Below are positions 1 through 15,080 of a stretch of 64,000 bases of DNA, in pieces (position 1 is the first letter of the stretch; each line of letters begins with the position of its first letter). Source of the stretch: an uncultured virus (IMG/VR IMGVR_UViG_3300020042_010191). Its lineage: Duplodnaviria > Heunggongvirae > Uroviricota > Caudoviricetes. The stretch is taken from the IMG/VR virus record IMGVR_UViG_3300020042_010191. One strand, written 5' to 3'. The position numbers and the translations under genes were made by a program. The notes under the pieces were generated by a model, which was given only the letters and a program-made list of their open reading frames with translations, was not told where the DNA came from and searched no databases.

Positions 1-2
1 AG

Positions 3-335
3 GTGTTCATCAAGCTCAAAGAATTTCAGAAGAGCATGGTTGCCAACCGGACGAACTTCAAGCGTCTCGAAGTTTATTTCGGGTCCTTTGATTTCAACGA
101 ATACATCGGCAAAGAGATTGTGCTTGGTGTTGAGAAGGTCAAGAGTCCACAAGGTGTGGTTGATGCGCTGCGATTCAGCACACGACCGCTACCTAAAAAG
201 GAGAAGCCAAGCATCACACCTGAGCGATTCGCCAAGGCCTTGCAGGCCATTGCTGATGGCAAGACTACAGCTGAGAAGTTAATCAGTGACTTTAATCTAA
301 CACCTGAGCAACATGCTGAAGTTACGAGCAAGTAA
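3..335 (+). CDS. Hypothetical phage protein (probably 5' truncated), recombination-module associated
   Basis: ORF open at the window edge, directly upstream of the exonuclease. Confidence 0.6.
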   Translation: MFIKLKEFQKSMVANRTNFKRLEVYFGSFDFNEYIGKEIVLGVEKVKSPQGVVDALRFSTRPLPKKEKPSITPERFAKALQAIADGKTTAEKLISDFNLTPEQHAEVTSK

Positions 336-1098
336 GTGTGCACCGCTATTCAACAGCGGCTCACCAGGGCTTACGCCTAATCAACAGGCAACCCTTGATG
401 GTTTACTAGCCAAGATCAAGTTGACTGAATTACAGGCAGCCAAGCGCGACGAGTTGGTTACAAAGCGTGACCAACAGCCTGAGCTAAGTCAAGGTGCCAA
501 GACATTGATCGAGGAGATCATTGACGAGAAGGTATACCAGTACAAAGATCACTTCTGGAGCAAGGAGACTGACAAGGGTACAGCTGTTGAGGACGAGGCG
601 ATTGAGCTGTATAACCGCGTGTTCTTTACGTCATACAAGAAATTGTATGACAATGACGAGTATGCATACCTCAACACACCACTCATGCATGGTCACCCTG
701 ACATCGTTGACGCTGAGCGACTTAAGGTGCTTGACATAAAGTCATCATACACCAAGAAGACGTTCCCGAAGACTGAGGAGAAGGCCGCTAAGAAGGTCAA
801 GGAGTCAGGGTATGACTGGCAGGTGAAGGCATACTTATGGATGCTACGTCAGATGACTGGCCTTGATTGGCGTGATGGTGAGGTGGCATACATGCTATGC
901 AACACACCTGAGGAGTTGTTAGGTGAATGGGACGAACCAAGCTTGCACTACATGGATGACATTGACGACAATATGAGGGCCACCATAGTTAAGGTGGCCC
1001 TAACTGACGATGACATCTCAACGATCGAGAATTGGTTGAAGGTAGCTAATGATTATGCTGATAAATATATTGGCGTATTAAAAACCAAGAACCTATGA
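313..1098 (+). CDS. YqaJ/lambda-exonuclease-like PD-(D/E)xK nuclease
   Basis: KGTAVEDEAI, GHPDIV...DIKSS and YDWQVKAYLW motifs. Confidence 0.75.
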   Translation: MLKLRASKCAPLFNSGSPGLTPNQQATLDGLLAKIKLTELQAAKRDELVTKRDQQPELSQGAKTLIEEIIDEKVYQYKDHFWSKETDKGTAVEDEAIELYNRVFFTSYKKLYDNDEYAYLNTPLMHGHPDIVDAERLKVLDIKSSYTKKTFPKTEEKAAKKVKESGYDWQVKAYLWMLRQMTGLDWRDGEVAYMLCNTPEELLGEWDEPSLHYMDDIDDNMRATIVKVALTDDDISTIENWLKVANDYADKYIGVLKTKNL

Positions 1099-1355
1099 GA
1101 GTCCGGTTGTTAACAGATGGCGGGTATGGCTTACGTCATGACGAGGTCGGTAAGATCTACGAGGCCAAGCGACATAACTACGGTTACCTAGTTAATGTAG
1201 GTACTGATGAGTTATACTTCTATGCAGATGAGGTTGAGGTGATCCAGGACCATATCTACTTTTTAGAGGCTGTAGAAGACAAGGCTGAAAACTATGTCTT
1301 AGGTATTGCAGTGGCAATAATATGTATTGTCACAATTATTTTAGTAATCTTTTAA
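1095..1355 (+). CDS. Hypothetical protein with C-terminal transmembrane segment
   Basis: ATGA overlap with upstream gene; hydrophobic C-terminus. Confidence 0.6.
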   Translation: MRVRLLTDGGYGLRHDEVGKIYEAKRHNYGYLVNVGTDELYFYADEVEVIQDHIYFLEAVEDKAENYVLGIAVAIICIVTIILVIF

Positions 1356-1363
1356 TTATATAT

Positions 1364-1705
1364 ATGTTTAAATTCAGAGGAATTGTCTACAAGGTAGGCA
1401 ATGTGGAGGTAATCTCCGAAAAGTTCAGCAAGCGTGAGCTAGTATTAACTGATGGTGATGACCAGTATCCGCAGTACATTTCATTTACATTTGTTAAGGA
1501 CAAGTGTGCACTTCTTGACAACCTAGCTGAAGGCCAGGAGACAGAGGTGTCGTTCAGCTTGAAAGGTCGTGAGTGGACTAGTCCACAGGGTGATGTCAAG
1601 TACTTCAACACCATTGAGGGATTCGCAGTAACGGGTGCAACTAACGTAGCGCCTAGCACACCGGGATCAGGTCACACTGACGATTCGGATGATCTACCCT
1701 TCTAA
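1364..1705 (+). CDS. DUF3127-family (Bacteroidetes SSB-like) protein
   Basis: FSKRELVL...YPQYI...VSFSLKGREW...YFNTI and acidic DDLPF tail. Confidence 0.8.
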   Translation: MFKFRGIVYKVGNVEVISEKFSKRELVLTDGDDQYPQYISFTFVKDKCALLDNLAEGQETEVSFSLKGREWTSPQGDVKYFNTIEGFAVTGATNVAPSTPGSGHTDDSDDLPF

Positions 1706-1739
1706 GAAGTTGTTTGCCCACTAGTCTGGGTATTGGTTC

Positions 1740-1768
1740 AATGGGTGTAGGCTAGTGCACCCATTTTT
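1740..1768 (+). terminator. Intrinsic terminator
   Basis: AATGGGTGTA/TGCACCCATT stem followed by a T run. Confidence 0.6.
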
Positions 1769-1781
1769 AATCTAATGTAAT

Positions 1782-2018
1782 ATGTGGTATAGAACATCTA
1801 CGGCTGATCAGCCGACCGACCCAATAGTTGATAGAGTAATCAAGAAATATCATGAGAGGTCCCAAGCTGGGATCAAGAAGTATGGGACGATGCTAACGCG
1901 TGACGACTACGAACTGATAGACTGGCTTAAAGAAGCTCAGTCTGAAGCTATGGATTTTGCATTGTATTGTGAAGCAGCAATAAATAAAATACAAAAAGAT
2001 GGGAGCAAAACAGCGTAA
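1782..2018 (+). CDS. Conserved small phage protein (GIKKYG...DWL..AQxEAMD type)
   Basis: Motif pattern common in phages; possibly MazG-like helical fold. Confidence 0.55.
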   Translation: MWYRTSTADQPTDPIVDRVIKKYHERSQAGIKKYGTMLTRDDYELIDWLKEAQSEAMDFALYCEAAINKIQKDGSKTA

Positions 2019-2709
2019 TTTAATAGGTCTTAGATATAACATGCTTATTGTTTTAGAAAGCCTACCTAGTACAAATCTTGGAACTAGTGGTTACAAAAAA
2101 AGAATGTGGCTATGTAAATGCGACTGTGGAAATTTGACTAAAGCAGCTACAGGAGATCTTACTGGGGACCATAAGAAATCTTGCGGTTGTTTAACTGCTA
2201 CGAAATCAGCTCAAAACTCTATAAATTCAAGGCATAAGATAGCTAAACAAGACGCTGGATATAGGAGTATTTATTCAAGTTACAAGGGAAACGCAAGGTC
2301 AAGAGAATTAAATTTTAATGTTGATTTTGACTATGCGGTAAGTATTATGAAGTCTAATTGCCATTATTGTGGAATAGAGCCATCTAATATTTATATGAAA
2401 TCTTATTACAATGCGACTTATAATGGAATTGATAGAGTAGATAATACTAAAGGATATGAAAATGACAATGTTGTTTCTTGTTGCAAGATGTGTAACATAG
2501 CAAAAAATAATAACACAGAGCAAGAGTTTATTACATGGATCAGTAGAGCCTATCATCACCAAAACAATAAGATGATTGTGAGAAAGAAGATGTGCGCCGA
2601 TGCATTCGAATGGCTTGAGCAGCAGCTTTACAAAACAAAGTGGGACGAGCTCACACACAATGAGAAGATGAATATTTTCGGATCAGCAAGACTAATGGCT
2701 AACCTTTAA
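1999..2709 (+). CDS. HNH homing endonuclease
   Basis: WLCKCDCGN, KSCGC, CHYCG, GIDRVDNTKGY...NVVSCCKMCN. Confidence 0.85.
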   Translation: MGAKQRNLIGLRYNMLIVLESLPSTNLGTSGYKKRMWLCKCDCGNLTKAATGDLTGDHKKSCGCLTATKSAQNSINSRHKIAKQDAGYRSIYSSYKGNARSRELNFNVDFDYAVSIMKSNCHYCGIEPSNIYMKSYYNATYNGIDRVDNTKGYENDNVVSCCKMCNIAKNNNTEQEFITWISRAYHHQNNKMIVRKKMCADAFEWLEQQLYKTKWDELTHNEKMNIFGSARLMANL

Positions 2710-2720
2710 ATCAGAATAAG

Positions 2721-2957
2721 ATGACAGCAGTAGAAAAAATAATTGCAGAAATAAACAATGAACTCCAAACCCTTGAAAGTTTACACGGAAAAGAAATATT
2801 TGGAAGAAAAGTAGGTTTGGCATTTGCTAAAAGAGTAGCAGAACAAGCCAAAGAAATGGAGAAGGAGCAAATAGTAACTGCTCATTATCAAGGATATAGA
2901 AATGATATTGGTACTACTGAAGTATCAGAACAATACTACAACGAAACCTTTAAATAA
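2721..2957 (+). CDS. Cassette protein (TAVE...AKEMEKEQI...YYNETFK type)
   Basis: Starts at the repeat ATG. Confidence 0.7.
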   Translation: MTAVEKIIAEINNELQTLESLHGKEIFGRKVGLAFAKRVAEQAKEMEKEQIVTAHYQGYRNDIGTTEVSEQYYNETFK

Positions 2958-2964
2958 GAATAAG

Positions 2965-3105
2965 ATGGAAAATAGATTAATAGAAAAAATGAAAGGCATG
3001 GTTCTCATTATAGTAATAGCAATATTGGGATTTGGTATTGTAAATACATTTATATTATTCCAGAGAATACAAGATTTAGAAAATAAAATAGAAGCGATTA
3101 AATAA
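2965..3105 (+). CDS. Cassette membrane microprotein
   Basis: Starts at the repeat ATG; one hydrophobic helix. Confidence 0.6.
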   Translation: MENRLIEKMKGMVLIIVIAILGFGIVNTFILFQRIQDLENKIEAIK

Positions 3106-3112
3106 GAATAAT

Positions 3113-3250
3113 ATGACAGGTCTATTTTTATTCACATTCATTTTTATCATTGCTCATTTTTTTGAAAAGTCAGACTATGATAGAATGAAAGAAGCAGAAA
3201 AACTACAAGAAGCAGAAAAATACTATAACGAAACATTTAAATTAAAATAA
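3113..3250 (+). CDS. Cassette membrane microprotein, 45 aa (MTGLFLFTF...), paralog of 4678-4803
   Basis: Hand translation between two junction repeats. Confidence 0.65.
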   Translation: MTGLFLFTFIFIIAHFFEKSDYDRMKEAEKLQEAEKYYNETFKLK

Positions 3251-3251
3251 G

Positions 3252-3410
3252 ATGGAAAACATTACAATAAAAACAACATTAAAAGTTAGTGGTTATAAAT
3301 TAGGAAACACAACATTAGCACTACCTTACAAACCAAAATGGATTCATAGAAAGATGATGAGCATATTTTTTGGAGTAAAATGGGTAGATGAAACCTTTAA
3401 ATCAGAATAA
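3252..3410 (+). CDS. Cassette protein, 52 aa, ending ETFKSE
   Basis: Hand translation between two junction repeats. Confidence 0.65.
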   Translation: MENITIKTTLKVSGYKLGNTTLALPYKPKWIHRKMMSIFFGVKWVDETFKSE

Positions 3411-3411
3411 G

Positions 3412-3735
3412 ATGACAGCAGTAAAACAATTAACAGCAATGCAAGAACTAAGAGATGACTTAGTTTTAACTTTAGAAAATGGAAATGAAGCTCTTAATGA
3501 AATCAGTGACCCATTTATCCGTGAAACTTGTCAAAAGTTAGTAGAGATAACTCTTAATGAGATAATCAAAAGAATTGATGATGAGTTGTTAGGTAAATGT
3601 TATAGCGAGAAAGAAGTAAGAACGGCTTTTGCAATTGGTATGGACTATTATACTGAGCGTGAGGTATGGGATAAAAATTCTCCATCTCAAAAACTAGAAA
3701 ATTTACTAAATAAACAAGAAATTATTAACCTTTAA
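3412..3735 (+). CDS. Cassette protein
   Basis: Starts at the repeat ATG. Confidence 0.65.
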   Translation: MTAVKQLTAMQELRDDLVLTLENGNEALNEISDPFIRETCQKLVEITLNEIIKRIDDELLGKCYSEKEVRTAFAIGMDYYTEREVWDKNSPSQKLENLLNKQEIINL

Positions 3736-3746
3736 AACAAAATAAG

Positions 3747-4097
3747 ATGAAGAAAACTAAAAATAGTACCCCAAGTTCAGAATGGGAGTCTAAAGACAGA
3801 TGTCCTTCTTGCGGTAGCTTTTGTGATATACACTTAGACCTAGATGAAAATGACGAATGTAATGACTGCAGAAGTATTAAAACAGCAGTAGAATATATTT
3901 TAAATCTTGTAGTAGGAGAAGACGAGCAAGGAAAAGATGTTAGAGTTAAGGACACCATTAGTAAGTCTGAAATTGCCAAAGCCAAAGAAATGGAGAAGCA
4001 AGAGAAGATTGAATTTGCTTGCAAAGTTTATAATGAAAATTATCTAAAGGATAAATCTTTTAGAAAAATAGCAGAAGAATTAATTAAATCAGAATAA
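3747..4097 (+). CDS. Cassette protein with CxxC/CxxC zinc-finger-like N-terminus and AKEMEK module
   Basis: CPSC...CNDC; ends KSE inside the repeat. Confidence 0.65.
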   Translation: MKKTKNSTPSSEWESKDRCPSCGSFCDIHLDLDENDECNDCRSIKTAVEYILNLVVGEDEQGKDVRVKDTISKSEIAKAKEMEKQEKIEFACKVYNENYLKDKSFRKIAEELIKSE

Positions 4098-4098
4098 G

Positions 4099-4281
4099 AT
4101 GAATAAGTTAAAAATGATATACATTAGTTTATTTAAAGTTATAACTCTTGAACAAGCACTTGAATATAATTTAACATTTGTAAGAAATGTTTATGGTGAT
4201 GAAATTAACCAAATAAATTGTAGGTCAATTTGGGCTGATAAAAATGGTAGAATTTATAGAGTTGACTCTTTTTACAACTAA
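4099..4281 (+). CDS. Cassette protein
   Basis: Flanked by exact repeats. Confidence 0.65.
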   Translation: MNKLKMIYISLFKVITLEQALEYNLTFVRNVYGDEINQINCRSIWADKNGRIYRVDSFYN

Positions 4282-4299
4282 CCTTTAAATCAGAATAAG

Positions 4300-4530
4300 A
4301 TGACATCGGATATTACATTAGACATAAAAGATTATGTTTACTTGCAAAGACGTTCTTCATACAATAACAACTACTACCAATACAAAGAAACGGGTGAAGT
4401 TATTTTAGAACAATATGAGGAGTGTTCAAACGCCTATGAGTATTTTCTTTATGTTCAAGACCAACCATTAACCTTTTTAGGTGCAAGTGTTAAGAGTATT
4501 GAAGATGGTATTATTACACTAACTAAATAA
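4300..4530 (+). CDS. Cassette protein
   Basis: Flanked by repeats. Confidence 0.65.
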   Translation: MTSDITLDIKDYVYLQRRSSYNNNYYQYKETGEVILEQYEECSNAYEYFLYVQDQPLTFLGASVKSIEDGIITLTK

Positions 4531-4541
4531 ATCAAAATAAT

Positions 4542-4676
4542 ATGACAGCATTAATTATAACATCATTTTTATTTGTGGCATCCGTGTTTTACTACATTGG
4601 AAAGCACCAAGAGAGAATTGAGTGGAACAAACTAATTAAAGACGGAATACTTCCTAAACCAAATAAATCAGAATAA
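4542..4676 (+). CDS. Cassette membrane microprotein, 44 aa, ending KSE
   Basis: Hand translation MTALIITSFLFVASVFYYIGKHQ... Confidence 0.6.
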   Translation: MTALIITSFLFVASVFYYIGKHQERIEWNKLIKDGILPKPNKSE

Positions 4677-4677
4677 G

Positions 4678-4803
4678 ATGACAGGACTATTTTTATTTAC
4701 ATTGATTTTTATCATTGCTCAATTTTTTGAGAAATCAGATTATGATAGAATGAAAGAAGCGGAAAGGATAACTTCTTTTACTAAACAAGAAGTGGGGAAT
4801 TGA
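4678..4803 (+). CDS. Cassette membrane microprotein, 41 aa, paralog of 3113-3250
   Basis: MTGLFLFTLIFIIAQFFEKSDYDRMKEAE. Confidence 0.65.
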   Translation: MTGLFLFTLIFIIAQFFEKSDYDRMKEAERITSFTKQEVGN

Positions 4804-4916
4804 TAAGAAAATAAAAGGTATAAATACCCTAATTAACTAGTAATCGTTCTACTCCTTTGAAAAACTATTGTCGTTTTATTATAAAAAAACTAATTTTATA
4901 AAAAAAACAAAAAACC

Positions 4917-5780
4917 ATGAAAAACCTATTATTATTTTTATTTCTATTACCAACAGTATTGTGGAGTCAATATCAGAAAATGTCCATATATTACACTTTA
5001 CCCACATTCCAATATCCAAACGATACGTGTACAATTCACGTAGAACCCGCACAATGTACTAATGACGCTTGTTTAATCAGTGGATACATTCAAGGAGGAA
5101 CTAGACCTTATTTCTACAAATGGAGATATGTTTCTAACAACACAATAGTTCAGGACTCAACACCGTCTACTATTGTACCTGGATATGATTACCCACAAGG
5201 ATTTGATATATTAGACCGATTTAATGTCAGTCTGAATACACCACAAGTAAGATTGTTTGGTACTTTAAATTGGACAGGACAATGGGAACTAACCGTAATT
5301 GATAGTCGTGTTACTTCGGCAACTGATAAACACGATACATTAAAAGTTATTGTTACTCATAAGTGGCCAGAGACACCAATCATTAATATAAATGCTTGTG
5401 ATACTTGTGTTGATGATTATCTATGGGTCACACCTCAGAGAGGAACACCACCATATAACATCACGGTATCAAGAATAGTTGATGATTTTGGTGGTTCTGT
5501 TGTAGAATACTATGGTGAACATTGTAGTGGATTAAATATTACCAATTTGGCTCAATTACCTCCAGCCTGTTATATTATTTCGGTTGCCGATGTTTGGGGT
5601 TGTTATAATGAAACAACATATTGTTATGGTGTAACGACAGGTATTGATGAATTACAATTAAATAAAGAGTTGGTAAAGATAGTTGATTTAATGGGAAGAC
5701 CAACCGAACCAACACCAAATAAAATCCTGATATATTATTATAGTGACGGAACAATTATTAAACAATTAAAAACAGAATAA
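4917..5780 (+). CDS. Secreted protein with SprB-like repeats and T9SS type A-like C-terminal sorting domain
   Basis: Signal peptide followed by Q; GGTRPYFYKW and GTPPYNI repeats; C-terminal TGIDE...KIVDLMGR...ILIYYYSDGTIIK. Confidence 0.7.
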   Translation: MKNLLLFLFLLPTVLWSQYQKMSIYYTLPTFQYPNDTCTIHVEPAQCTNDACLISGYIQGGTRPYFYKWRYVSNNTIVQDSTPSTIVPGYDYPQGFDILDRFNVSLNTPQVRLFGTLNWTGQWELTVIDSRVTSATDKHDTLKVIVTHKWPETPIININACDTCVDDYLWVTPQRGTPPYNITVSRIVDDFGGSVVEYYGEHCSGLNITNLAQLPPACYIISVADVWGCYNETTYCYGVTTGIDELQLNKELVKIVDLMGRPTEPTPNKILIYYYSDGTIIKQLKTE

Positions 5781-5781
5781 G

Positions 5782-5937
5782 ATGAAGATAACAGTAGAAG
5801 TAGAAGGAGTAACTTATTCCGCAGAAATACAAGAAGCTAAAAGTTTTGATACACTAATTGATTTAGTGGTTAATTTATCAAGAGCAGTTGGTTATACAGA
5901 TGAAACTATTAATAAACGGATAAAAGAAGAACAATGA
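5782..5937 (+). CDS. Cassette protein, 51 aa
   Basis: Starts at the repeat ATG; ATGA-coupled to the next gene. Confidence 0.6.
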   Translation: MKITVEVEGVTYSAEIQEAKSFDTLIDLVVNLSRAVGYTDETINKRIKEEQ

Positions 5938-6230
5938 AATTAACAACAAATGAACAGGGAGTAATCCAATTGGAAGAAGTATTTAATGGGATTATTTTAA
6001 AAACAAAAGATGGTGAGGAAATGACCATCTGTATGAGAGATGGTGGATTTGAGTTTAGATATCAAGGAGAACGGTATTTCGCAAAAGAAGGATTTGTTAT
6101 GCAATTTAAGAAATCAATTCGTGGTAATAATTTAGTAGACCAAAGTCACGAAGAAGATTTGGTGGGACCAGGACCAGCACACTTAGCAAGGATGAGTGAA
6201 AAAAATAGATATATACCTAAATCAGAATAA
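5934..6230 (+). CDS. Cassette protein ending KSE
   Basis: Ends inside an exact repeat. Confidence 0.65.
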   Translation: MKLTTNEQGVIQLEEVFNGIILKTKDGEEMTICMRDGGFEFRYQGERYFAKEGFVMQFKKSIRGNNLVDQSHEEDLVGPGPAHLARMSEKNRYIPKSE

Positions 6231-6231
6231 G

Positions 6232-6321
6232 ATGAAAAGAAACTATATCATCAAAGTTAATGGTCAATATGTTGTTTTAACAGAAGGTCAGTATGAACAG
6301 TATTTAATTTATGGTATTTAA
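6232..6321 (+). CDS. Cassette microprotein, 29 aa
   Basis: Between two exact repeats. Confidence 0.5.
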   Translation: MKRNYIIKVNGQYVVLTEGQYEQYLIYGI

Positions 6322-6340
6322 ATCAGAATAAGATGACAGA

Positions 6341-6368
6341 AAGAGTCGACTCGGGTTGGCTCTTTTTT
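6341..6368 (+). terminator. Intrinsic terminator closing the cassette array
   Basis: AAGAGTCGAC/GTTGGCTCTT stem followed by a T run. Confidence 0.7.
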
Positions 6369-6480
6369 ACTGTGCGATATTTATATATGTAGAGTTGCGG
6401 CTACCATGTAAAATATTTTTAAAGAAGCCTTGTATTGAGTAGAGACCGCAACCTCGAAAAATACAAGGCTATTTACTAGT

Positions 6481-7053
6481 ATGAATTATCAAAGAATACA
6501 TGATCAAATCATTGAACGTGCGAAAACAAGAAAATTAAAAGGTTATCGAGAACGACATCACATCAACCCGCGGTGCCTAGGTGGAACAGATGATTTAGAT
6601 AATCTAGTTGAATTAACGGCTCGTGAGCATTTTATTATACATAAATTACTATGCGAAATTTATCCTAATAATAACAAATTAATTTATGCATACTGGATGA
6701 TGTGTAATATGAAATCTAATACACAAAATCGAAGTTATTTAATTAGTTCGCACGAATACGAACGAGCTAGATTGTTATTTAGCTATATGCATAGTAATAG
6801 AATAATAACTTCAGATACGAGAGAAAAATTAAGATTAGCTAGATTAGGTAAGACTATTAATATGCCTAATGGCCCATATACCCATACTACAGAAGCACGA
6901 GAAAAAATTCGAAATTCTAAGTTAGGAAAAAAACGAGGACCGTTGTCAGAAGACCAGAAAACTAAAATGTCATTAAAATTAAAAGGGCGTAAGTTATCTG
7001 ATGATCATAAGAAAAAAATAAGTGAGGCTCGTAAACGGAAAACTAATTTGTAG
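6481..7053 (+). CDS. HNH homing endonuclease with NUMOD3-like repeats
   Basis: ERHHINPRCLGGTDDLDNLVELTAREHFIIH; repeated (H/L)S/TxxxxxK(I/M)S units. Confidence 0.9.
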   Translation: MNYQRIHDQIIERAKTRKLKGYRERHHINPRCLGGTDDLDNLVELTAREHFIIHKLLCEIYPNNNKLIYAYWMMCNMKSNTQNRSYLISSHEYERARLLFSYMHSNRIITSDTREKLRLARLGKTINMPNGPYTHTTEAREKIRNSKLGKKRGPLSEDQKTKMSLKLKGRKLSDDHKKKISEARKRKTNL

Positions 7054-7471
7054 AATTAGATTTTACGGGTACTGCAGAAGAATACATAGTAAGCATATAC
7101 GAAGAACGCAAAGAGTAATACAAGTACGAGTATTAAGTATATAGTAAGTATATAAGCATATACATATACGTATAAAGATTCTCTATTACCCAGGTTTTCC
7201 CATAGACGCTACTACAGGGTAGAAATTGAGGATAGAGTCTAGTATGATCTCCCGCTCCCGTTATTTTTAGTTTGTATTCAGTAAAAGTACTAGTCGTATA
7301 TTTAGATTGATTTTTAAATTTAGTGTCTAGTAGCATCAGCTCGGGAAGGTTATATATCTCCCTGCCTGTCCTTCGCGTTTTAATGGGGCGTATGCTCTTT
7401 ATTACCCAGTCAATGGATATCTAGCATATTCGAGGCCCTAGATGTTCTTAAACGAACTAAAAGGGCTATCC

Positions 7472-7737
7472 TATTTTTAGTCCAATATAGTCTATTTTTA
7501 GTCCAATATGCGTTATTTTTAGATGAATCGACCTTCTCCCCCCGTCTATTTTTAGTCCAATTTCAGATTCTATTTTTAGAAGCATTGGGTTTATTTTTAG
7601 TTGACTCTCTATATATAGTGATTTCAATGCGTTTATTTTTAGATGGATATAGTCTATTTTTAGTCCAATATGTGTTATTTTTAGATGATTTTTAGTGTGT
7701 ATGCGTATATCTATTTTTAGATGTGGGTTATTTTTAG
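7472..7737. repeat. Phased TATTTTTAG repeat cluster (iteron-like)
   Basis: 11 exact copies at 7472, 7493, 7514, 7547, 7571, 7592, 7634, 7655, 7676, 7712, 7729; one more at 7262. Confidence 0.9.
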
Positions 7738-7859
7738 GTGCTGTATTTAGGTTTTAGTTCGGTTTCCTAGCTATTGAGCGTAAACATAATCCGTAACTTT
7801 TAGCTCGATCCGGTTGGATTCTCGCAGTATGTTTCATATAATATAAGAGTAAAAAGGAA

Positions 7860-7955
7860 ATGATTATGCCTTTAGTAGGATATATAGCAATTGGATTGAT
7901 AGCAGGCCTGTTTGCCTTAGGCATTTGGAATGACTTCATCCGACCTAGAAAGTAA
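7860..7955 (+). CDS. Membrane microprotein, 31 aa
   Basis: MIMPLVGYIAIGLIAGLFALGIWNDFIRPRK downstream of a TTGGAT-N17-TATAAT promoter. Confidence 0.55.
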   Translation: MIMPLVGYIAIGLIAGLFALGIWNDFIRPRK

Positions 7956-7960
7956 CGTTA

Positions 7961-8135
7961 GAAGGGATCCGGTGTTTGCTGGACCTTCACTATATAGTTC
8001 CAGGTTGTAACCACAGTCGATGCTCTCTGTTGGCGGCTCGATGAACACCTCAACCTGGACGACATTCGCTGGACCTGGTTTCTCTCTCTTATTTCCCAGG
8101 CGTGCACGTAGGGAGTCGTAATGGCTCCCTTTTTT
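7961..8135 (+). ncRNA. Putative structured small RNA or 3' RNA domain with terminator
   Basis: GC-rich; three stems (7961-7988, 7999-8059, 8074-8100) plus terminator stem 8110-8135. Confidence 0.55.
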
Positions 8136-8306
8136 ACAGTTCAATCGATGGTTTAAGTTCAACCAACGGTTTAAGTAGATTTCCATAGATATCATTTATA
8201 AGGATCCAACTTTCCATAAAAACATTTTATGAAACTTTTTTTGCCAAAATGCTTGACACGCACGGATATTTTGCTTATCTTTATATTATAATAAAAAATA
8301 AGAGAT

Positions 8307-8510
8307 ATGAAAAAGAACCGTTATTTAGTTAAAGTATTTGGAATCCAGGGCCGAGCTGTCAATGATGTTGATCTGCAATGGATCGTAACAGAAATTTCAG
8401 GCCATCATGCAATCCGATCAGTTAAGGAGCAATTGCAATGGTCACGTAAGTTAACCGACTTTGAGATTGCACAATATTCATTTAGTGCTGATTATTTAGA
8501 ATCTGCATAA
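8307..8510 (+). CDS. Early-region hypothetical protein
   Basis: Follows a promoter/leader unit. Confidence 0.7.
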   Translation: MKKNRYLVKVFGIQGRAVNDVDLQWIVTEISGHHAIRSVKEQLQWSRKLTDFEIAQYSFSADYLESA

Positions 8511-8594
8511 AAAACTTTTATGAAACTTTTTTTGGAAAAGACTAGGATCCTATCCTAAAAATGCTTATCTTTATATAAATTAAAAATAAGAGAT

Positions 8595-8723
8595 ATGAAG
8601 ACACTTAGAGAAAAGCAGGAGCATGCATTGCATTATGTATGTGGACTTGATTTTGACACGCTTAAGGCAATGTCAGATTCAGAAGTTAATCAGTTATTTA
8701 TAAAGCATTTAAAAAATATATAA
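8595..8723 (+). CDS. Early-region microprotein, 42 aa
   Basis: Hand translation after a leader unit. Confidence 0.6.
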   Translation: MKTLREKQEHALHYVCGLDFDTLKAMSDSEVNQLFIKHLKNI

Positions 8724-8726
8724 GAG

Positions 8727-9131
8727 ATGAAAAAGACAGCAAATTTAGCAACACAATTAAATGGATTCGCAAACGGAGTGATCTTAGACCCGCAGGGCAA
8801 CAACACAGACTGTTTCAATTTCTATGATTGGTTCTGTAAAGATTCTAGCTTGGAACGTAAATCATGGAATTTAATGAAGAAGGTAAAGACGTTCCTTAAA
8901 CATAATCCGGATATTGATTTATTAACGCATTACGTGTTCTTTAAGAACAATTGTCCATTGAATGGTCCAATGTATGATGATTTTAGAATTTGCAACGTTG
9001 AGACAAGCGATGTAGTATATACAGTAATTCCTAAATGTGGCCATTCTGGGTTAGCTGAAATATGGGGACGTGAAAATGGCTTCGAAGGCCCTATTAAGAC
9101 AGCTGAAACTTTTTCGAAACTTTTTTCATAA
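8727..9131 (+). CDS. Early-region conserved phage protein (FYDWFC, FFKNNCP...YDDFRI)
   Basis: ORF with TAAGAG leader. Confidence 0.7.
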   Translation: MKKTANLATQLNGFANGVILDPQGNNTDCFNFYDWFCKDSSLERKSWNLMKKVKTFLKHNPDIDLLTHYVFFKNNCPLNGPMYDDFRICNVETSDVVYTVIPKCGHSGLAEIWGRENGFEGPIKTAETFSKLFS

Positions 9132-9190
9132 AAGATTAGGTTCGCATTCTGAAAATGCTTATCTTTATATTATAATAAAAAATAAGAGAT

Positions 9191-9565
9191 ATGAAAAAAG
9201 AAATTAAAACACAGTACGGAATCCAAATCGTTAAACCTTGGAGCAAAGAGATGTATGCACACAATGAGATGGTTGCAGAAGCAGTCCGCATATTAGTAAC
9301 TCAACGTTGGGAGAATGAATTAAATGCATTTGAAGAAACATTGGGTGAGTTTGCTGAAGATGTAGAATGGATCTCTGAAGCACCTAAAAGCTTAAAGGAC
9401 ATACAACGAGCCATTACATGTTACGGGTTTGGTTATGGCTATGACGTAGAGCGAGTATCTCGCATAGTAGAGCAAGAGTTAGAAGATGCTCCATTATACC
9501 GTCTCAATGAGATAGCAGAAGAGTTAGAGTTAGATTTGAAAGTAGGGTTTGTTGGCTTTAATTAG
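9191..9565 (+). CDS. Early-region hypothetical protein
   Basis: Leader unit. Confidence 0.7.
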   Translation: MKKEIKTQYGIQIVKPWSKEMYAHNEMVAEAVRILVTQRWENELNAFEETLGEFAEDVEWISEAPKSLKDIQRAITCYGFGYGYDVERVSRIVEQELEDAPLYRLNEIAEELELDLKVGFVGFN

Positions 9566-9608
9566 CCAGCAAACTTTTCTATATTATATAAATTAAAAAA
9601 TAAGAGCA

Positions 9609-9791
9609 ATGATAAATTTAGATAAAGCAATATTGATTGGAGAAGGCAAATGGGTTAATGATGTAGCTCATCAAGTATATAAACAAGATGATAGTTACTA
9701 CGTAGTTACAATTGTTGATCACCAAAATAAAGAAGTTATAGAGGAATTGACTGTTGAAATCGAAGAGAAAGATATCAATCAATATATCTAA
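9609..9791 (+). CDS. Early-region hypothetical protein
   Basis: AAATAAGAG leader. Confidence 0.65.
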   Translation: MINLDKAILIGEGKWVNDVAHQVYKQDDSYYVVTIVDHQNKEVIEELTVEIEEKDINQYI

Positions 9792-9863
9792 AAAAAAGCT
9801 GCTAAAAAGCTTGTTTCCTATCAGAATAAACCTTATCTTTAAGTATTATAAAAAATAAGAGCG

Positions 9864-10130
9864 ATGACACATAAAGAGTTTAAATTGACAGTTAAGAAAG
9901 ACATAATGGAGTCAGCTGGATATAATAGACAAGCTGTAAAGTACCATGTAGGAGATACAATGATAGTTGATGAGGCTACGTTCGAGCGCATCCAATCCGG
10001 AAAGTTTGTTGAAAGAATGACACAAGAAGGCTTTATCCATTTTGATAAGTATAACTTTGAGAATGAGGTTTCATTCACAGCCATCACCGTTGAGTATGGG
10101 ATCCGTAGATTAGGTCAAAGAAAAAAGTAA
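9864..10130 (+). CDS. Early-region hypothetical protein
   Basis: Leader unit. Confidence 0.7.
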   Translation: MTHKEFKLTVKKDIMESAGYNRQAVKYHVGDTMIVDEATFERIQSGKFVERMTQEGFIHFDKYNFENEVSFTAITVEYGIRRLGQRKK

Positions 10131-10212
10131 AAAAAGTTTAAAAAAAGTTGCCAAAACGGTTGACACGCATCGATTTATTCCTTATCTTTAAGTATAATAA
10201 AAAATAAGAGAT

Positions 10213-10371
10213 ATGACAAAGACACAAAAAAAAGCATTAGCAAAGAAATGAGAAAAGCAATTAGCCGCGGCAGACAAGCAATGGGATGAAAAAGGACCAG
10301 ATGCAGCAGCATATTGCTACGGGTATTTGATTGGAACTATTCGCGAAACCATTTACCAATTAGAAAACTAA
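10213..10371 (+). pseudogene. Early-region gene interrupted by an in-frame TGA at 10249
   Basis: Full leader unit; MTKTQKKALAKK*EKQLAAADKQWDEKG...LEN. Confidence 0.55.
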
Positions 10372-10376
10372 GAGAC

Positions 10377-10556
10377 ATGAAGAAATGGCATTTCACAGAA
10401 AGGATTGAGAACGTAACAGTGTTACAATTCTATAGCGTAGAAGCAGAGACGGAAGCAGAAGCATTAGCAATGGTCCAAAATGGTCATGGGTTTGTAGACT
10501 CGTGGACGGAATCTGGAGTAACGGGAGACATCACATTAGTAGACACAACCGAATAA
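10377..10556 (+). CDS. Early-region hypothetical protein (VEAETEAEA motif)
   Basis: TAAGAGAC-ATG start. Confidence 0.65.
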   Translation: MKKWHFTERIENVTVLQFYSVEAETEAEALAMVQNGHGFVDSWTESGVTGDITLVDTTE

Positions 10557-10626
10557 AAAAGTTTAAAAAAGATTAGGATCGCATTAAGAAAATGCTTATC
10601 TTTAAGTATAATAAAAAATAAAAGAT

Positions 10627-10869
10627 ATGACACAAACAGAAAGATTACTCAAAGCAGGTTTTGTACCAGTAGACCTTAAGGCTGGTAACGTGAAGGTAGG
10701 AGATAACATTTCTAACCATGGTATGTGTTTTGGGACACTGAAGAAGATAACCAAGAAGGGTAACTATAAGGTTCGCTTTGATATGGATTACTATGGAGAG
10801 CCATTGACAAAGTTCACTCCAGAGGATTTTGAAAGAATCTTCCTTGTAGATAAAAGAAAAAAAGATTAA
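10627..10869 (+). CDS. Early-region hypothetical protein (SH3/KOW-like pattern)
   Basis: Leader unit; VKVGDNI...YKVRFD. Confidence 0.65.
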   Translation: MTQTERLLKAGFVPVDLKAGNVKVGDNISNHGMCFGTLKKITKKGNYKVRFDMDYYGEPLTKFTPEDFERIFLVDKRKKD

Positions 10870-10923
10870 AAAAGATTAGGATCTGAAGTGAAAAATGCTT
10901 ATCTTTAATAAAAAATAAGAGAT

Positions 10924-11133
10924 ATGACAAAAGCAGAAAAGAAAGAATTGCAATTAAGCGCTGAATTATTCAGCTCTTTAAGAGCCGAGTATGAGCAATA
11001 CCAAGCTAAAGCTCATCTAGAGGATCGAATGTCATTCATTGACTATGCTCAGGGTTTAGGAAGATTCCAAGGCTACAAGATAGTTGTAAAGACAAACGGA
11101 TATTTGGATTACATGATAACTTTCATGAAATGA
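10924..11133 (+). CDS. Early-region hypothetical protein
   Basis: Leader unit. Confidence 0.65.
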   Translation: MTKAEKKELQLSAELFSSLRAEYEQYQAKAHLEDRMSFIDYAQGLGRFQGYKIVVKTNGYLDYMITFMK

Positions 11134-11276
11134 GTAAGTTGGATCAACATAGGCTATGGGAAACTTACTCAGTAGACCTATTGCTAGCAATCCGTTGGGA
11201 ATTGCTTACCGGACATCGCTTTGAGGCAGTAAAAATTGTGGATAAAATAATTGAAAAAAAGTTGCCGAAAGATTAG
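11130..11276 (+). CDS. Early-region microprotein, 48 aa
   Basis: ATGA coupling; hand translation. Confidence 0.5.
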   Translation: MSKLDQHRLWETYSVDLLLAIRWELLTGHRFEAVKIVDKIIEKKLPKD

Positions 11277-11326
11277 GATCTGAACATTATTTTACTTATC
11301 TTTATTAAAATTAAAAAGAGAGATAT

Positions 11327-11527
11327 ATGACAAGAGACATTACAGTAGTAGATAGCTTAGCGGCAGTGACAAATCGATTTGATCAATACACGCTTTGCAA
11401 CGCAGTGCAATCCTTAACCCGACAAGCATTAGCCGAAGGCTTTGATGTTGAGGATATCAAAGCAGTGTTAAGTTTCATGATGGAAACGGAAGTAGATGTG
11501 ACAGTCGATGTTTGGGAATGTGAATAA
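11327..11527 (+). CDS. Early-region hypothetical protein
   Basis: Leader unit. Confidence 0.65.
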   Translation: MTRDITVVDSLAAVTNRFDQYTLCNAVQSLTRQALAEGFDVEDIKAVLSFMMETEVDVTVDVWECE

Positions 11528-11608
11528 CTTTGTTAAACAAAGTTTGCAAAAGACTAGGATCGCATTAGATAATTTATTAAATTTATATAAATTAAAAAAA
11601 TAAGAGAT

Positions 11609-11833
11609 ATGACAGTAGCAGATTTAATTTACGAGTTAGAGCAATTGAACCCAGAAGCGCAAGTAAGATTTGCATCGCAGCCAAATTGGCCATTTGAGTA
11701 TAGTATTGCTAGTGTAGTGCAAGTTGAGATCGAAGATCGCCGGACCGAAGAAGTTGTAGAGACTGTTTATTTAGAGGAAGGTCGTCAAATAGGTTACTTG
11801 CCAGGAGAAGCTAAAGACGAGTTAGGCTGGTAA
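11609..11833 (+). CDS. Early-region conserved small protein (MTVADLI...QPNWPFEYSI...EGRQIGYLP)
   Basis: Leader unit. Confidence 0.7.
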   Translation: MTVADLIYELEQLNPEAQVRFASQPNWPFEYSIASVVQVEIEDRRTEEVVETVYLEEGRQIGYLPGEAKDELGW

Positions 11834-11915
11834 AAAAGTTTAAAAAAAGTTACCAAAATATTAGGATCGCATTGAAATAAACCTTAAATTTATATAAATT
11901 AAAAAAATAAGAGAT

Positions 11916-12107
11916 ATGGCTAAAGGCACAAAGAATTCAGGAAAGTTTCAGCAAGATGCAGTAATTGGTCGCTTCACAGCAGACGCACGCAAGCCGCAGG
12001 AGTTAAATGCTATTGTTAAGGCAGCATTGGCAGCGGGAGAAAGAAACCGAATCTACCGCGAAGAGCAAGCACGTAAGGCAGCATTAAACCCACGCATTGT
12101 AAGATGA
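11916..12107 (+). CDS. Early-region basic protein
   Basis: Leader unit. Confidence 0.65.
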   Translation: MAKGTKNSGKFQQDAVIGRFTADARKPQELNAIVKAALAAGERNRIYREEQARKAALNPRIVR

Positions 12108-12196: not shown

Positions 12197-12208
12197 GTTA
12201 TAAGAGTT

Positions 12209-13165: not shown

Positions 13166-13166
13166 T

Positions 13167-15060: not shown

Positions 15061-15080
15061 ATCATATCTCTCAATATGAA

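Follow-up and report, generated by a model that had tools for sequence, protein, structure and literature searches.

Integrons comprise the IntI integrase, attI and attC sites and a Pc promoter, and lambdoid phages carry 'boundary sequences' between modules. In the modular theory of phage evolution, linker or boundary sequences (Botstein 1980, as discussed in PMC2839356) are described as short conserved stretches between exchangeable modules. Phage annealing recombinases of the Rad52-like type are reported to carry out relaxed recombination on short or diverged homology, with a minimal efficient pairing segment (MEPS) of 23-27 bp for Red-beta and with the Erf/Exo pair of phage D3 matching Red in efficiency on diverged DNA (De Paepe et al. 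2014, PMC3945230). The modules at issue in those cases are larger functional ones, carried by temperate phages. The closest known system to the locus described here is the promoter-early stem-loops (PeSL) of T4-type phages, conserved repeats of large myophages that border the small ORFan genes of hyperplastic regions (Arbiol et al. 2010, PMC2839356; Comeau et al. 2014, PMC4122927). In those accounts, relatives differ by repeat-bounded insertions, deletions and replacements, general homologous recombination on short patches is proposed with no dedicated recombinase invoked, and the authors themselves draw the comparison with integrons. The PeSL are described as intergenic elements of ~100 bp that contain a sigma-70 promoter, a stem-loop terminator and a Shine-Dalgarno site, hence each PeSL cassette is its own transcription unit.

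The locus analysed here belongs to a freshwater phage represented by a DNA stretch of 64,000 nucleotides (the window). Its repeated element, AACCTT followed by the 17-mer TAAATCAGAATAAGATG, is only 23 nt long, has no promoter or hairpin, overlaps the end of the upstream coding sequence, whichever of the three frames this uses, and appears to link genes in one transcript; it is also common to records in which no portal homologue of the window phage was detected. Mini-circles are a feature reported for PeSL. In contrast to the modular-theory boundaries, the linker is also a translation junction, and the unit it delimits is the single microgene. The array resembles an integron in its co-oriented, promoterless cassettes read from one end, with a recombination-site-like repeat at their borders; it differs in having no integrase, attC hairpin or imperfect inverted repeat, and in that the repeat forms part of the reading frames, providing both stop and start codons. 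The window holds a second repeat class (~97 nt, 8272-15208) that looks more PeSL-like.

Thirteen co-oriented copies of the 17-mer are present at 2707-6335, seven exact, one with a single mismatch and five with two, in agreement with the original count of 13 junction copies. A scan of the window allowing up to 3 mismatches returned 16 matches, 16/16 on the plus strand and 0/16 on the minus strand, compared with a chance level of 0.77 on average and 3 at most (100 shuffles). The 17-mer contains TAA at positions 1-3 and 11-13 and ATG at 15-17, in three different frames, giving the layout AACCTT-TAAATCAGAATAAG-ATG. These stops and the start are invariant, while positions 5-8 and 14 vary to A or T only. 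All 13 copies are used as a stop/start junction: the upstream ORF ends in the frame reading ...K(S/T/L)(E/K) or ...K before the stop at 8/13, at the first TAA (...NL, ...TK or ...GI) at 4/13, and at a stop located 4 nt 5' of the 17-mer (...FYN) at 1/13. The motif indeed supplies the ATG, opening an ORF of 29-116 aa at 12/13 copies; at the thirteenth (ATG 6333), correctly described as empty, a 19-codon frame runs into the terminator hairpin and its U-tract (-20.2 kcal/mol, z -2.8; equalled by 1/200 shuffles). Thus joined by the motif, the 14 small ORFs of the array form one unit closed by that hairpin, only two ORFs (4917-5780 and 5934-6230) having no motif at their start. The cassettes had been called mostly unrelated, which is only partly the case: two are paralogues, those at 2721 and 3747 belong to one family (F0, see below), and those at 3113 and 3252 bear the C-terminal residues of F0.

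Table 1. Coordinates of the array and its flanks in the window.
Feature	Position	Strand	Remarks
C-terminal part of 159-aa phrog_21613-type protein	3..335	+	cut by window start
PD-(D/E)XK exonuclease	313..1098	+	phrog_5715 E 3e-45; Pfam PDDEXK_1 E 3e-5
SSB-like protein (DUF3127 type)	1322..1705	+	phrog_4932 E 2e-26; L037 and L052 homologues match DUF3127
Terminator-like hairpin	1740..1765	+	ahead of array-holding unit
Small protein, family F3	1782..2018	+	L037 homology stops inside, at 1907; F3 is itself a motif-preceded cassette in other loci
HNH endonuclease gene	1999..2709	+	last codons (...ANL, stop) are the junction in second frame
Junction copy 1	2701..2723	+	23 nt, exact 17-mer
Cassette, F0-family protein	2721..2957	+	78 aa
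Junction copy 2	2945..2967	+	1 mismatch
Cassette	2965..3105	+	46 aa; hydrophobic stretch resembling a single-pass membrane segment (by eye); homologue in L109, 89% identical
Junction copy 3	3093..3115	+	2 mismatches
Cassette	3113..3250	+	45 aa; hydrophobic N-terminus, F0-type tail YYNETFKLK; paralogue of 4678-4803 (78% over 36 aa)
Junction copy 4	3232..3254	+	2 mismatches; L109 homology stops here
Cassette	3252..3410	+	52 aa; unrelated body with ETFKSE tail
Junction copy 5	3392..3414	+	exact
Cassette	3412..3735	+	107 aa; MTAV start as in F0; second-frame end (...INL, stop)
Junction copy 6	3727..3749	+	2 mismatches
Cassette	3747..4097	+	116 aa; four-cysteine N-terminal part fused to F0 boxes
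Junction copy 7	4079..4101	+	exact
Cassette	4099..4281	+	60 aa; phrog_35589; relatives in Cellulophaga phages
Junction copy 8	4280..4302	+	exact; upstream ORF stop 4279-4281 just ahead
Cassette	4300..4530	+	76 aa; 83% nt homologue in L066
Junction copy 9	4522..4544	+	2 mismatches
Cassette	4542..4676	+	44 aa; hydrophobic N-terminus (by eye)
Junction copy 10	4658..4680	+	exact
Cassette	4678..4803	+	41 aa; paralogue of 3113-3250
287-aa protein	4917..5780	+	signal-peptide-like N-terminus; own 113-nt upstream region, no motif ahead; ends ...KTE (stop) in junction copy 11; no match in family search
Junction copy 11	5762..5784	+	2 mismatches
Cassette	5782..5937	+	51 aa; stop overlaps next start (ATGA), no motif there
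98-aa ORF	5934..6230	+	end ...PKSE (stop)
Junction copy 12	6212..6234	+	exact
Cassette	6232..6321	+	29 aa
Junction copy 13	6313..6335	+	exact; no real gene after
Intrinsic-terminator hairpin (6338-6367) with U-tract	6338..6368	+	closes unit
HNH/NUMOD3 homing endonuclease gene	6481..7053	+	just beyond array; phrog_655 E 1e-49

The 23-nt element corresponds to the 3' end (...YYNETFKSE, stop) of the F0 family plus the next start codon. F0 is a large, uncharacterised viral microprotein family of the pattern MKQTAVEWL...EQAKEMEKEQI...YYNETF-KSE (stop), with 105 members in 72 of the motif loci, often in tandem. A protein-similarity search found the KSE ending in only 9 of the best 120 F0 proteins, so the tail is not a protein-level feature. 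Frame use was determined for 232 non-redundant copies from the window and viral loci, of which 199 were retained after requiring an upstream ORF of at least 25 codons: 140 are read in the KSE frame (frame A), 39 end at the first TAA (21 of these as ...NL) and 20 lie in the start frame, where the ORF has a stop of its own immediately ahead. The AACCTT flank, located outside the search seed used for the motif, is kept in all three classes (50-95% per position). Conservation in three frames is therefore at the nucleotide level, as originally proposed. A better account of the element than an integron-like mechanism is that a paralogous microgene family's conserved 3' end has been fused to a translation start. 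Other F0 lineages have different junctions (NTNEK, or KQQEQ with an ATGA overlap), so the exact sequence is not required for translation in general.

Cassette content and order vary among relatives, as had been envisaged. Identity between the window and locus L109 is 94% across the 421 nt that lead up to junction 3238, and straight after the ATG the two are unrelated; homology with L074 spans one cassette, linker to linker, and in L066 the cassette at 4300 is flanked by other neighbours on both sides. A fourth locus, L037, shares 86% nucleotide identity with window positions 1-1907, followed by wholly different small genes. Among 109 internal alignment ends (at least 90% identity), 43 fall on the motif, which makes up 1.7% of bases, and 40 on other gene borders (8.5% of bases); synteny is broken at 63/120 motif junctions versus 96/543 others (small genes only, 55/112 versus 46/261; counted per junction, 40/56 versus 34/115), although the loci were ascertained through the motif and are related, so these counts are not independent and Fisher P is inflated. 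Conserved boxes within F0 genes (2841, 2872 and 2926) have breakpoints equally often, indicating that the linker is one of several short homologies as opposed to a unique site. Homology breakpoints coincide with the linker, where small accessory genes have been swapped, and the motif itself may be the crossover site.

Genes for an ssDNA-binding protein, a PD-(D/E)XK exonuclease and an SSB-like protein are found directly upstream of the array region (3-1705). The first of these (3..335) is 86% identical at the nucleotide level to the full-length L037 gene, and its product matches phrog_21613 (E 1e-19) and gave no match to Pfam ERF. An AF2 model of this protein (pLDDT 86.9) has as best PDB matches the OB-fold ssDNA binders PrgE and RPA, weakly (E 7e-3), and only a 40-aa C-terminal tail is shared with the L066 Erf. 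It is probably an OB-fold ssDNA-binding protein, encoded in the place occupied by an Erf-type annealing protein in other loci. An Erf and exonuclease module is found at the same place in many relatives, and the F1/F2 module lies upstream of the motif in 13/26 multi-copy loci with at least 2.5 kb of upstream sequence, being absent within 4 kb in the other half. The original statement that no recombinase is visible holds for integrases and overlooks these genes.

A search of viral sequences recovered the exact 17-mer in at least 126 contig stretches, 60 of which carry 2-6 co-oriented copies; whole records have 9, 8 and 7 copies on one strand, with 0 for a reversed control pattern. The 186 ORFs that begin at the motif sort into 107 families or singletons, F0 accounting for only 24. 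No homologue of the window portal was detected in five records (G002-G006) by a search run without a positive control. The motif occurs with many gene families and on several phage backbones, and recurs among numerous unrelated uncultured phages. Flavobacteriia are the probable hosts, consistent with the predicted Bacteroidetes phage. Among independent samples, 20 runs from 17 studies contain 31-53% of the array's words, and 10/24 of the loose ends listed diverge at a motif copy. While metagenome contigs often end at the motif, an assembly artefact, with fragments concatenated at a shared k-mer, is almost certainly the wrong explanation: at 17-32 nt the repeat does not exceed the k-mer sizes in usual use, the contigs listed for four independent runs bridge 7/13 junctions in window order with 0-7 differences, and the same adjacent cassettes are reproduced in L109, L074 and L041.

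The motif could in principle be a by-product of F0 tandem duplication, consisting of the F0 C-terminal codons and the next F0 start, with the other cassettes being diverged F0 copies. The size and tandem habit of F0, the xTFK(SE) ending of 79/140 frame-A upstream ORFs and the ATGACAG that follows 6/13 window copies, as in F0, are in line with this. However, the same 23 nt are kept at 59/199 junctions read in other frames, the downstream ORFs are non-F0 in 162/186 cases and comprise over 100 families (among their products a 366-aa protein and small hydrophobic, membrane-spanning-looking proteins), and KSE is rare among F0 proteins, making this origin decidedly improbable. A role in translation only merits more weight, and yet seems fairly unlikely. 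On this reading, selection would keep the linker because it couples stop to start and makes every downstream microgene initiate strongly, its homology would have no recombination role, and borders would coincide with it only as surviving recombinants must keep genes intact. Adenines at -3, -6, -12 and -13, all present in the linker, raise initiation in F. johnsoniae, and Shine-Dalgarno sites are described as not used in Flavobacterium, where adenine context favours initiation (Baez et al. 2019, PMC6847099). Across the 12 junctions ahead of the terminator, the minimum free energy ranges from 0 to -6.5 kcal/mol and 11 fold no better than shuffles, the exception (3213-3282) forming a small 4-bp hairpin downstream of the ATG (z -2.4). 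Together with the invariant stops and start, the A or T restricted variable positions and the 40/109 recent breakpoints at ordinary gene borders, this agrees with a translation signal. The linker thus resembles the Kozak-like context of Bacteroidia in its adenines, lack of a Shine-Dalgarno site and low start structure, but that context is reported as a loose adenine preference (PMC6847099), in contrast to a fixed 23-mer with non-adenine positions. Known determinants do not require C-9, G-7, T-10, T-4, G-1 or AACCTT, yet the conservation of these extends over 107 gene families and several phage backbones, the same gene family works with other junction classes, other genes of the same phage have different start contexts, and the rate of synteny breaks is ~3x that of other tight small-gene junctions.

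Strict identity over 17-23 nt, in excess of initiation needs, might instead mark where a sequence-specific factor binds or cleaves, such as a RegA-type (T4) translational repressor/activator, an RNA-processing nuclease or a DNA endonuclease, for example a flanking HNH enzyme cutting at junctions. HNH endonuclease genes do occur at both array ends, the first ending in a junction copy, but no candidate factor co-occurs with the motif: among 1346 ORFs from the motif loci and the window, each of the two window HNH proteins is a singleton. With no antisense copy among the 16 window matches, and with the motif in records without a detected portal homologue, each of which would have to rely on that same factor or on one from the host, such a site is improbable. 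The original reading was of an integron-like array serving gene exchange; as a mechanism, an integron-like platform would have a site-specific recombinase excise and insert circular cassettes at the motif. Despite the co-oriented, promoterless cassettes, the repeated site at each border and the 'empty' last site, this mechanism is highly improbable. A Pfam scan of 70 window ORFs gave neither a tyrosine nor a serine recombinase, and 20 scanned ORFs of related loci gave no integrase; the motif has no dyad symmetry, no hairpin is shared among 12 RNA folds or 6 DNA folds of junctions, and no recurring inverted repeat was found there. An integron is ruled against by the lack of an integrase in the 64 kb, of an attC-like hairpin and of dyad symmetry, and contig joints at the motif have sides of at most 33 nt and are ambiguous.

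We favour, with somewhat better than even confidence, a dual role as a stop-start translation linker for hosts that do not use Shine-Dalgarno sites and as a short homology patch for general recombination. Several observations weigh against this dual role: surviving breakpoints would also end up at gene borders if selection acted only to keep genes intact, 23 nt is at the lower edge of the efficient range for annealing recombinases, the upstream window protein is no recognised SSAP, half of the informative multi-copy loci have no module within 4 kb, and strict identity at non-adenine positions is unexplained by known initiation determinants. Under the dual role, the 23-nt intercistronic linker would join promoterless microgenes into one operon, which begins past the hairpin at 1740-1765 and runs as far as the terminator at 6338-6368. 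It stops an upstream ORF in two of three frames and starts the next in the third, probably coupling their translation, with its adenines set in an unstructured stretch that would favour initiation. As every copy is alike, the linker also provides a short patch of homology, and crossovers may occur within it, rather than being merely selected at gene borders. General phage recombination, possibly by the neighbouring module, would perform the exchange, and a dedicated site-specific recombinase would not be needed. Exchange at the linker between co-infecting phages would thereby leave intact, expressible genes on both sides.

The 17-nucleotide motif TAAATCAGAATAAGATG was found to match the window 16 times at up to three mismatches, in all 16 cases on the plus strand, compared with a mean of 0.77 matches (maximum 3) in the shuffled window. 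Thirteen copies (seven exact, one with one mismatch and five with two) separate the co-oriented ORFs of the microgene array, as in the original prediction. The conserved core of the aligned copies measures approximately 23 nt, AACCTT followed by the 17-mer, and is referred to here as the linker. Identity extends on as ATGACAG in six window copies and, by eye, copies 2701 and 3392 agree over as much as 32 nt. Motif positions 1-3 and 11-13 read TAA and positions 15-17 read ATG, each in a different frame, so that an upstream ORF is stopped in two frames and the next gene is started in the third. The motif does supply the start codon as proposed, with 12 of the ATGs opening ORFs of 29-116 aa; the last copy is indeed empty, its ATG being followed by only 19 codons that read into the terminator. 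Upstream ORFs stop in different frames of the motif, as had been noted: eight stop at the second TAA or at a variant (...KSE, ...KTE, ...KLK or ...K before the stop), four at the first TAA (...NL, ...TK or ...GI), and one, in the start frame, has a TAA of its own 4 nt ahead of the 17-mer.

The linker consensus has A at positions -2, -3, -5, -6, -8, -11, -12 and -13 relative to the start codon. According to excerpts of PMC6847099, A-3, A-6, A-12 and A-13 raise initiation in Flavobacterium johnsoniae, where Shine-Dalgarno sites are unused. As far as can be judged from its consensus and folds and those excerpts, the linker fits this Bacteroidia Kozak-like initiation region, with adenines at -3/-6/-12/-13, no Shine-Dalgarno site and an unstructured sequence. 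Folded as RNA, the 12 junctions that precede the terminator reach minimum free energies between 0 and -6.5 kcal/mol, and for 11 of them the fold is no better than in shuffles (z -0.65 to +1.66); the value for junction 3213-3282 (z -2.38) comes from a 4-bp hairpin 3' of the ATG. By eye, the motif seems to pair poorly with the 3' tail of 16S rRNA.

The linker is a real and widespread feature. The database search suggested by the original prediction recovered the exact motif in at least 126 viral contig stretches, 60 of which carry two to six co-oriented copies at up to three mismatches (five loci duplicate others). Whole virus records contain nine (223 kb), eight (66.7 kb, rated complete) and seven copies (80 kb), always on a single strand, and a reversed control pattern gave no match in whole records. 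No homologue of the window portal was detected in five whole motif records, in a search run without a positive control; if this holds, the linker is common to different backbones. The nearest record, G001, lacks the motif and does not reach into window positions 1-26000. Against GenBank phages, megablast with 2401-6700 gave no match and blastn with a 40-nt junction gave chance-level matches only (E 7); the linker is absent from the records searched, and no named phage among them carries the junction. Matches in cellular genome contigs are mostly single and spread across numerous unrelated taxa, conserved loci of Lachnospiraceae and Prochlorococcus among them, and we read the single matches as chance or unrelated. 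Five small cellular contigs have two or three copies, most with the AACCTT flank. With single matches scattered and multiple copies confined to small contigs, there is no sign that host chromosomes use the linker.

The dominant ORF cluster of the motif loci is a microprotein family, here named F0, with 105 members in 72 loci. Its members are 60-90 aa long and contain the boxes (K)QTAVEWL, EQAKEMEKEQI and YYNETF; the sequence separating these boxes is variable. The family comprises at least 1022 clusters at 90% identity in the protein collection, which are viral and all labelled hypothetical, and no Pfam, PHROG or NCBIfam model matches it. F0 and neighbouring proteins consist of short shuffled boxes (QTAVEWL, AKEMEKEQI, YSEEDV…, LKDFDTWKEWK and YYNETF), in varied orders and mixed with unrelated segments, in viral motif loci (L002-L127), in loci found via F0 (L248-L327) and in the window (2721-2957 and 3747-4097). 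Searched as strings, the motif and the F0 boxes gave nothing in the literature text covered, and a literature keyword search on Flavobacterium phage motifs returned nothing relevant.

Most F0 genes of the motif loci end ...ETF-KSE, encoded as ACC TTT AAA TCA GAA TAA and followed by G and ATG, which is the linker exactly. Of the 120 top-ranking F0 proteins in a protein-similarity search, only nine have the KSE end. In 80 loci found via F0 and not via the motif, the KSE class accounts for 21 of 96 F0-type ends, and 19 of these loci carry the motif, all 42 copies lying on the F0 strand and none on the opposite strand. The scarcity of KSE among the F0 proteins, together with other recurrent junction classes, indicates that the tail is not a protein feature of F0; it is one junction 'allele' common to a subset of phages. 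Other 'alleles' after YYNETF are AACACCAACGAGAAATGA (NTNEK then stop, ATGA overlap), AAACAACAAGAACAATGA (KQQEQ then stop, ATGA overlap) and GGAGGTGACAAATGA (GGDK then stop). Each of these is conserved between loci (L249, L251, L270, L272, L285, L298 and others), which hints at lineage-specific linkers. Of 232 non-redundant motif copies, 199 are preceded by an ORF of at least 25 codons: 140 in the KSE frame (F0-type xTFK tail in 79, other tails in 61), 39 in the first-TAA frame (21 ending ...NL, AAC CTT TAA) and 20 in the start frame. The AACCTT flank, which lay outside the search seed, shows per-position conservation of 75-95% for start-frame copies and of 50-85% for copies of the two remaining classes. 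Downstream, 186 motif-started ORFs form 107 families or singletons, with 24 of the ORFs being F0. Retention of AACCTT in all three frame classes, combined with the 107 downstream families, rules out a purely protein-level explanation and upholds the earlier view that conservation is at the nucleotide level.

Comparison with related loci confirms that cassette content varies between relatives. The window and locus L109 have 94% identity over 421 nt, covering three cassettes up to linker 3238, and are unrelated directly past the ATG, while L074 has one cassette in common with the window, linker to linker. Locus L066 contains the 4300-4530 cassette at 83% identity, with neither neighbour the same as in the window. 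L037 matches window 1-1907, the recombination module, at 86% identity, and its downstream small genes are all different. Breakpoints were taken as internal ends of alignments of at least 90% identity and at least 150 nt (n = 109). The motif, at 1.7% of bases, accounts for 43 of these ends and other gene borders, at 8.5%, for a further 40; gene interiors make up 76% of bases and contain 19, with the last 7 in intergenic sequence. Synteny was scored as broken where the neighbour across a tight junction was not shared, given a shared gene of at least 85% identity. Such breaks occur at 63 of 120 motif junctions versus 96 of 543 elsewhere, at 55 of 112 versus 46 of 261 when both genes are at most 130 aa and, for the same small genes counted per junction, at 40 of 56 versus 34 of 115; these ratios are indicative only and their P values carry no meaning, as the loci were ascertained via the motif, are mutually related, and close F0 paralogues may score as breaks. 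Breakpoints also cluster at F0 internal boxes (window 2841, 2872, 2926, 3207 and 3979), which points to the linker as one of several short homologies in these genes. The expectation of breakpoints exactly at the motif holds for the 43 recent ends and does not extend to those on the F0 boxes.

Parts of the array were also sought in metagenomes, and 20 runs from 17 studies each contain between 31 and 53% of the words sampled from 2600-6500. For four runs, contigs were aligned to the stretch, with 32 pieces listed of 997 and 24 loose ends listed of 281. Among the pieces listed, seven of the 13 junctions (3099, 3238, 3733, 4085, 4528, 4664 and 5768) are bridged in window order with at least 31 nt on each side. 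This argues against an assembly artefact, and runs counter to the concatenation that the original prediction had named as its possible undoing. Ten of the 24 listed loose ends diverge from the window at a motif copy (2947, 2949, 2952, 3232, 3240 in two runs, 3415, 3753, 4689 and 6236), indicating that the same cassettes adjoin other sequences in other genomes; most of the other listed ends diverge at F0 boxes. With sides of just 20-33 nt, joints of non-adjacent copies (e.g. 2735>6218 and 3420>6318) are indistinguishable from repeat-to-repeat matches and are not taken here to indicate excision; array stretches lacking contig cover in some runs are uninformative.

The original prediction had suggested looking for a co-occurring recombinase or single-strand annealing protein (SSAP). 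The motif lies downstream of a pair formed by an annealing or ssDNA-binding protein (F1) and an exonuclease (F2, phrog_5715) in 13 of 26 multi-copy and 8 of 21 single-copy loci with at least 2.5 kb upstream. F1 is heterogeneous: 24 members cluster with an Erf-family annealing protein, and the L066 member, the one checked, matches Pfam ERF (E 1e-32) and Erf-like PHROGs. Four members and the window protein are of a different type of 157-159 aa (phrog_21613), which has only the last ~40 residues in common with the Erf type. Assignment of the window upstream protein as an Erf SSAP, made on the basis of single-linkage clustering, was rejected, since Pfam ERF fits the L066 protein and not the window type. 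An AlphaFold2 model of the phrog_21613 type (pLDDT 86.9) gave weak best matches in a fold search to the OB-fold ssDNA binders PrgE (E 7e-3), RPA and PRD1 P12. We take an OB-fold ssDNA binder beside an exonuclease to recall gp2.5-type annealing proteins. In the portions of PMC3945230 used here, the minimal efficient pairing segment of Red-beta is 23-27 bp, and phage D3 Erf/Exo is as efficient as Red on diverged DNA. Set against that Red-beta range, a linker of 23 nt, with identity of up to 32 nt, lies at the recombination threshold.

The linker array is not an integron, in contrast to the original description of it as integron-like. No integrase or recombinase domain was found in Pfam scans of 16 + 54 = 70 window ORFs (the window being part of a genome), and no integrase among 20 scanned ORFs of related loci; the reported lack of a visible recombinase is thus borne out for site-specific types. 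An adjacent IntI tyrosine recombinase is therefore missing from the ORFs scanned, as are attC sites, imperfect inverted repeats that form hairpins when single-stranded, from the junctions folded. The 12 RNA-folded junctions before the terminator have no shared structure, six junctions folded as minus-strand DNA gave none (z -1.1 to +1.95), and none of 11 inverted-repeat pairs in 2600-6400 recurs at junctions. The cassettes are co-oriented and tightly packed, with a terminator on either side. No promoter was identified for the array by a sigma-70 type scan, which is unsuited to this host and gave 26 promoter-like matches in 1-9000, fewer than the mean of 36.3 in shuffles.

Among known systems, the PeSL of T4-type phages comes closest. 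In the sections of PMC2839356 and PMC4122927 drawn on here, PeSLs are ~100-bp repeats of promoter, stem-loop and Shine-Dalgarno sequence at ORFan borders, which recombine with each other, form mini-circles and are likened to integrons by their own authors. Compared with PeSLs as described there, the linker likewise marks the edges of ORFans in variable regions and delimits the indels and replacements by which relatives differ, again without a dedicated recombinase. Unlike the ~100-bp PeSL, it is conserved over 23 nt with no stem-loop terminator and no promoter (a promoter-like match overlaps one of 13 junctions in the sigma-70 type scan). It also differs from that description in being intra-operonic, overlapping coding ends in any frame, and providing stop and start codons.

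The window phage is a large myophage, encoding a T4-type portal and terminase, gp25 and wedge proteins, a fused SbcCD-like nuclease and its own sigma factor. By portal, the nearest cultured relatives are Microcystis phage Mel-JY01 (50%) and Flavobacterium phage vB_FspM_immuto (49%). Multi-copy motif contigs are included in Flavobacterium and Flavobacteriales bins, and the metagenome runs with parts of the array are mostly freshwater. Together with the Cellulophaga phage relatives of one cassette, this makes a host in the Flavobacteriia likely.

Coordinates and properties of features in and around the microgene array, in window order
Coordinates	Feature	Remarks
	phrog_21613 protein, C-terminal part	
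	PD-(D/E)XK exonuclease	
	86-aa ORF	
	SSB-like DUF3127 protein	
1740-1765	Terminator-like hairpin	
1782-2018	Small protein F3	
	HNH endonuclease gene	Last codons form first linker copy
2707-6335	13 motif copies	
2721-2957; 3747-4097	F0 ORFs	N-terminal (K)QTAVEWL, central AKEMEKEQI, C-terminal YYNETF
4099-4281	Cassette	Relatives in Cellulophaga phages
4917-5780	287-aa cysteine-rich protein	No motif start, own A/T-rich 113-nt leader; signal-peptide-like N-terminus; no family match
5934-6230	Array ORF	No motif start, ATGA overlap
6338-6368	13-bp hairpin and U-tract	-20.2 kcal/mol, z -2.8
	HNH/NUMOD3 homing endonuclease gene	3' of array terminator
6368-6480	Two nested inverted repeats (by eye), array terminator to homing endonuclease gene	GAGTTGCGG…CCGCAACCTC and AGCCTTGTATT…AATACAAGGCT
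7054-8306	1.2 kb without long ORF	Contains the 7472-7741 repeats
7472-7741	Iteron-like repeats	Many (G)TTATTTTTAG(TCCAATAT / ATGA), ~21-nt spacing
8215-15208	Second repeat class, before small genes	~12 copies, ~50-97-nt intergenic cassette, …AAAAAAAGTT.CCAAAAGATTAGGATCGCATT…GCTTATCTTTA…AAAAAATAAGAGATATG
12209-12949	Sigma factor gene	Adjoined by second repeat class
32297, 41130, 45313, 55092, 57127, 60990	ATTTATATAAAA-like motif	10-20 nt upstream of several structural genes

An association of HNH genes with the motif was rejected, as the motif loci contain no homologue of either window HNH protein. Visual inspection of the 287-aa protein had hinted at a T9SS sorting domain, but neither Pfam nor NCBIfam found one. 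A tRNA scan and Rfam found nothing in the window. GC content is 0.42-0.50 in the ssDNA-binding/exonuclease/SSB module (1-2000) versus 0.26-0.34 in the array (2000-6400), with a parallel drop from 0.45 to 0.29 in the microgene stretch of L037, whose homology to the window stops within the F3 ORF, shortly before the HNH gene. These compositional steps, and the end of homology at 1907, suggest an AT-rich cassette pool distinct from phage backbones. Elsewhere in the window, the second repeat class looks like a promoter-bearing regulatory cassette and is nearer to PeSLs in form than the 23-nt linker. The iteron-like repeats may mark an origin or regulatory region. The ATTTATATAAAA-like motif may be a late promoter, presumably reminiscent of the T4 late TATAAATA box.

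The linker is more than a translation signal, and we infer an exchange mechanism whereby microgene cassettes would be swapped at the linker by general phage recombination. It is probable, in our estimation, that the linker is a stop-start translation element, either originating in F0 gene ends or common to them, and that it doubles as a homology patch for this exchange. A bolder proposal, which we consider rather doubtful, is that the 23-mer is a selected universal adaptor of a recombinase-free cassette system. An ORF placed between two copies would then be stopped in two of three frames and its neighbour started, without a promoter or ribosome-binding site of its own. Identical copies would let the AT-rich microgene pool move between backbones of one host group by annealing-type recombination, and the ssDNA-binding/exonuclease or Erf/exonuclease module, often beside arrays, would service the exchange. 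If true, the adaptor would be a functional counterpart of the integron, built on translation junctions and homologous recombination.

Phage genomes are mosaic, and it has long been debated whether short conserved 'linkers' guide exchange or selection filters exchanges that are themselves random. The stop-start element described here is an unusually clean candidate for such a linker: it is only 23 nt long, is conserved in three frames, borders more than 100 gene families, and is common to records in which no homologue of the window portal was detected (by a search without a positive control). An adaptor shared across phages makes the hypothesis testable, using metagenome time series and a Flavobacterium phage-host pair. 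The array genes are predicted to be, probably, early accessory or host-takeover genes. Gene callers often miss such microgenes, and the motif provides a practical handle to find and delimit them. The linker also suggests how phages of non-Shine-Dalgarno hosts keep dozens of microgenes expressible during swapping.
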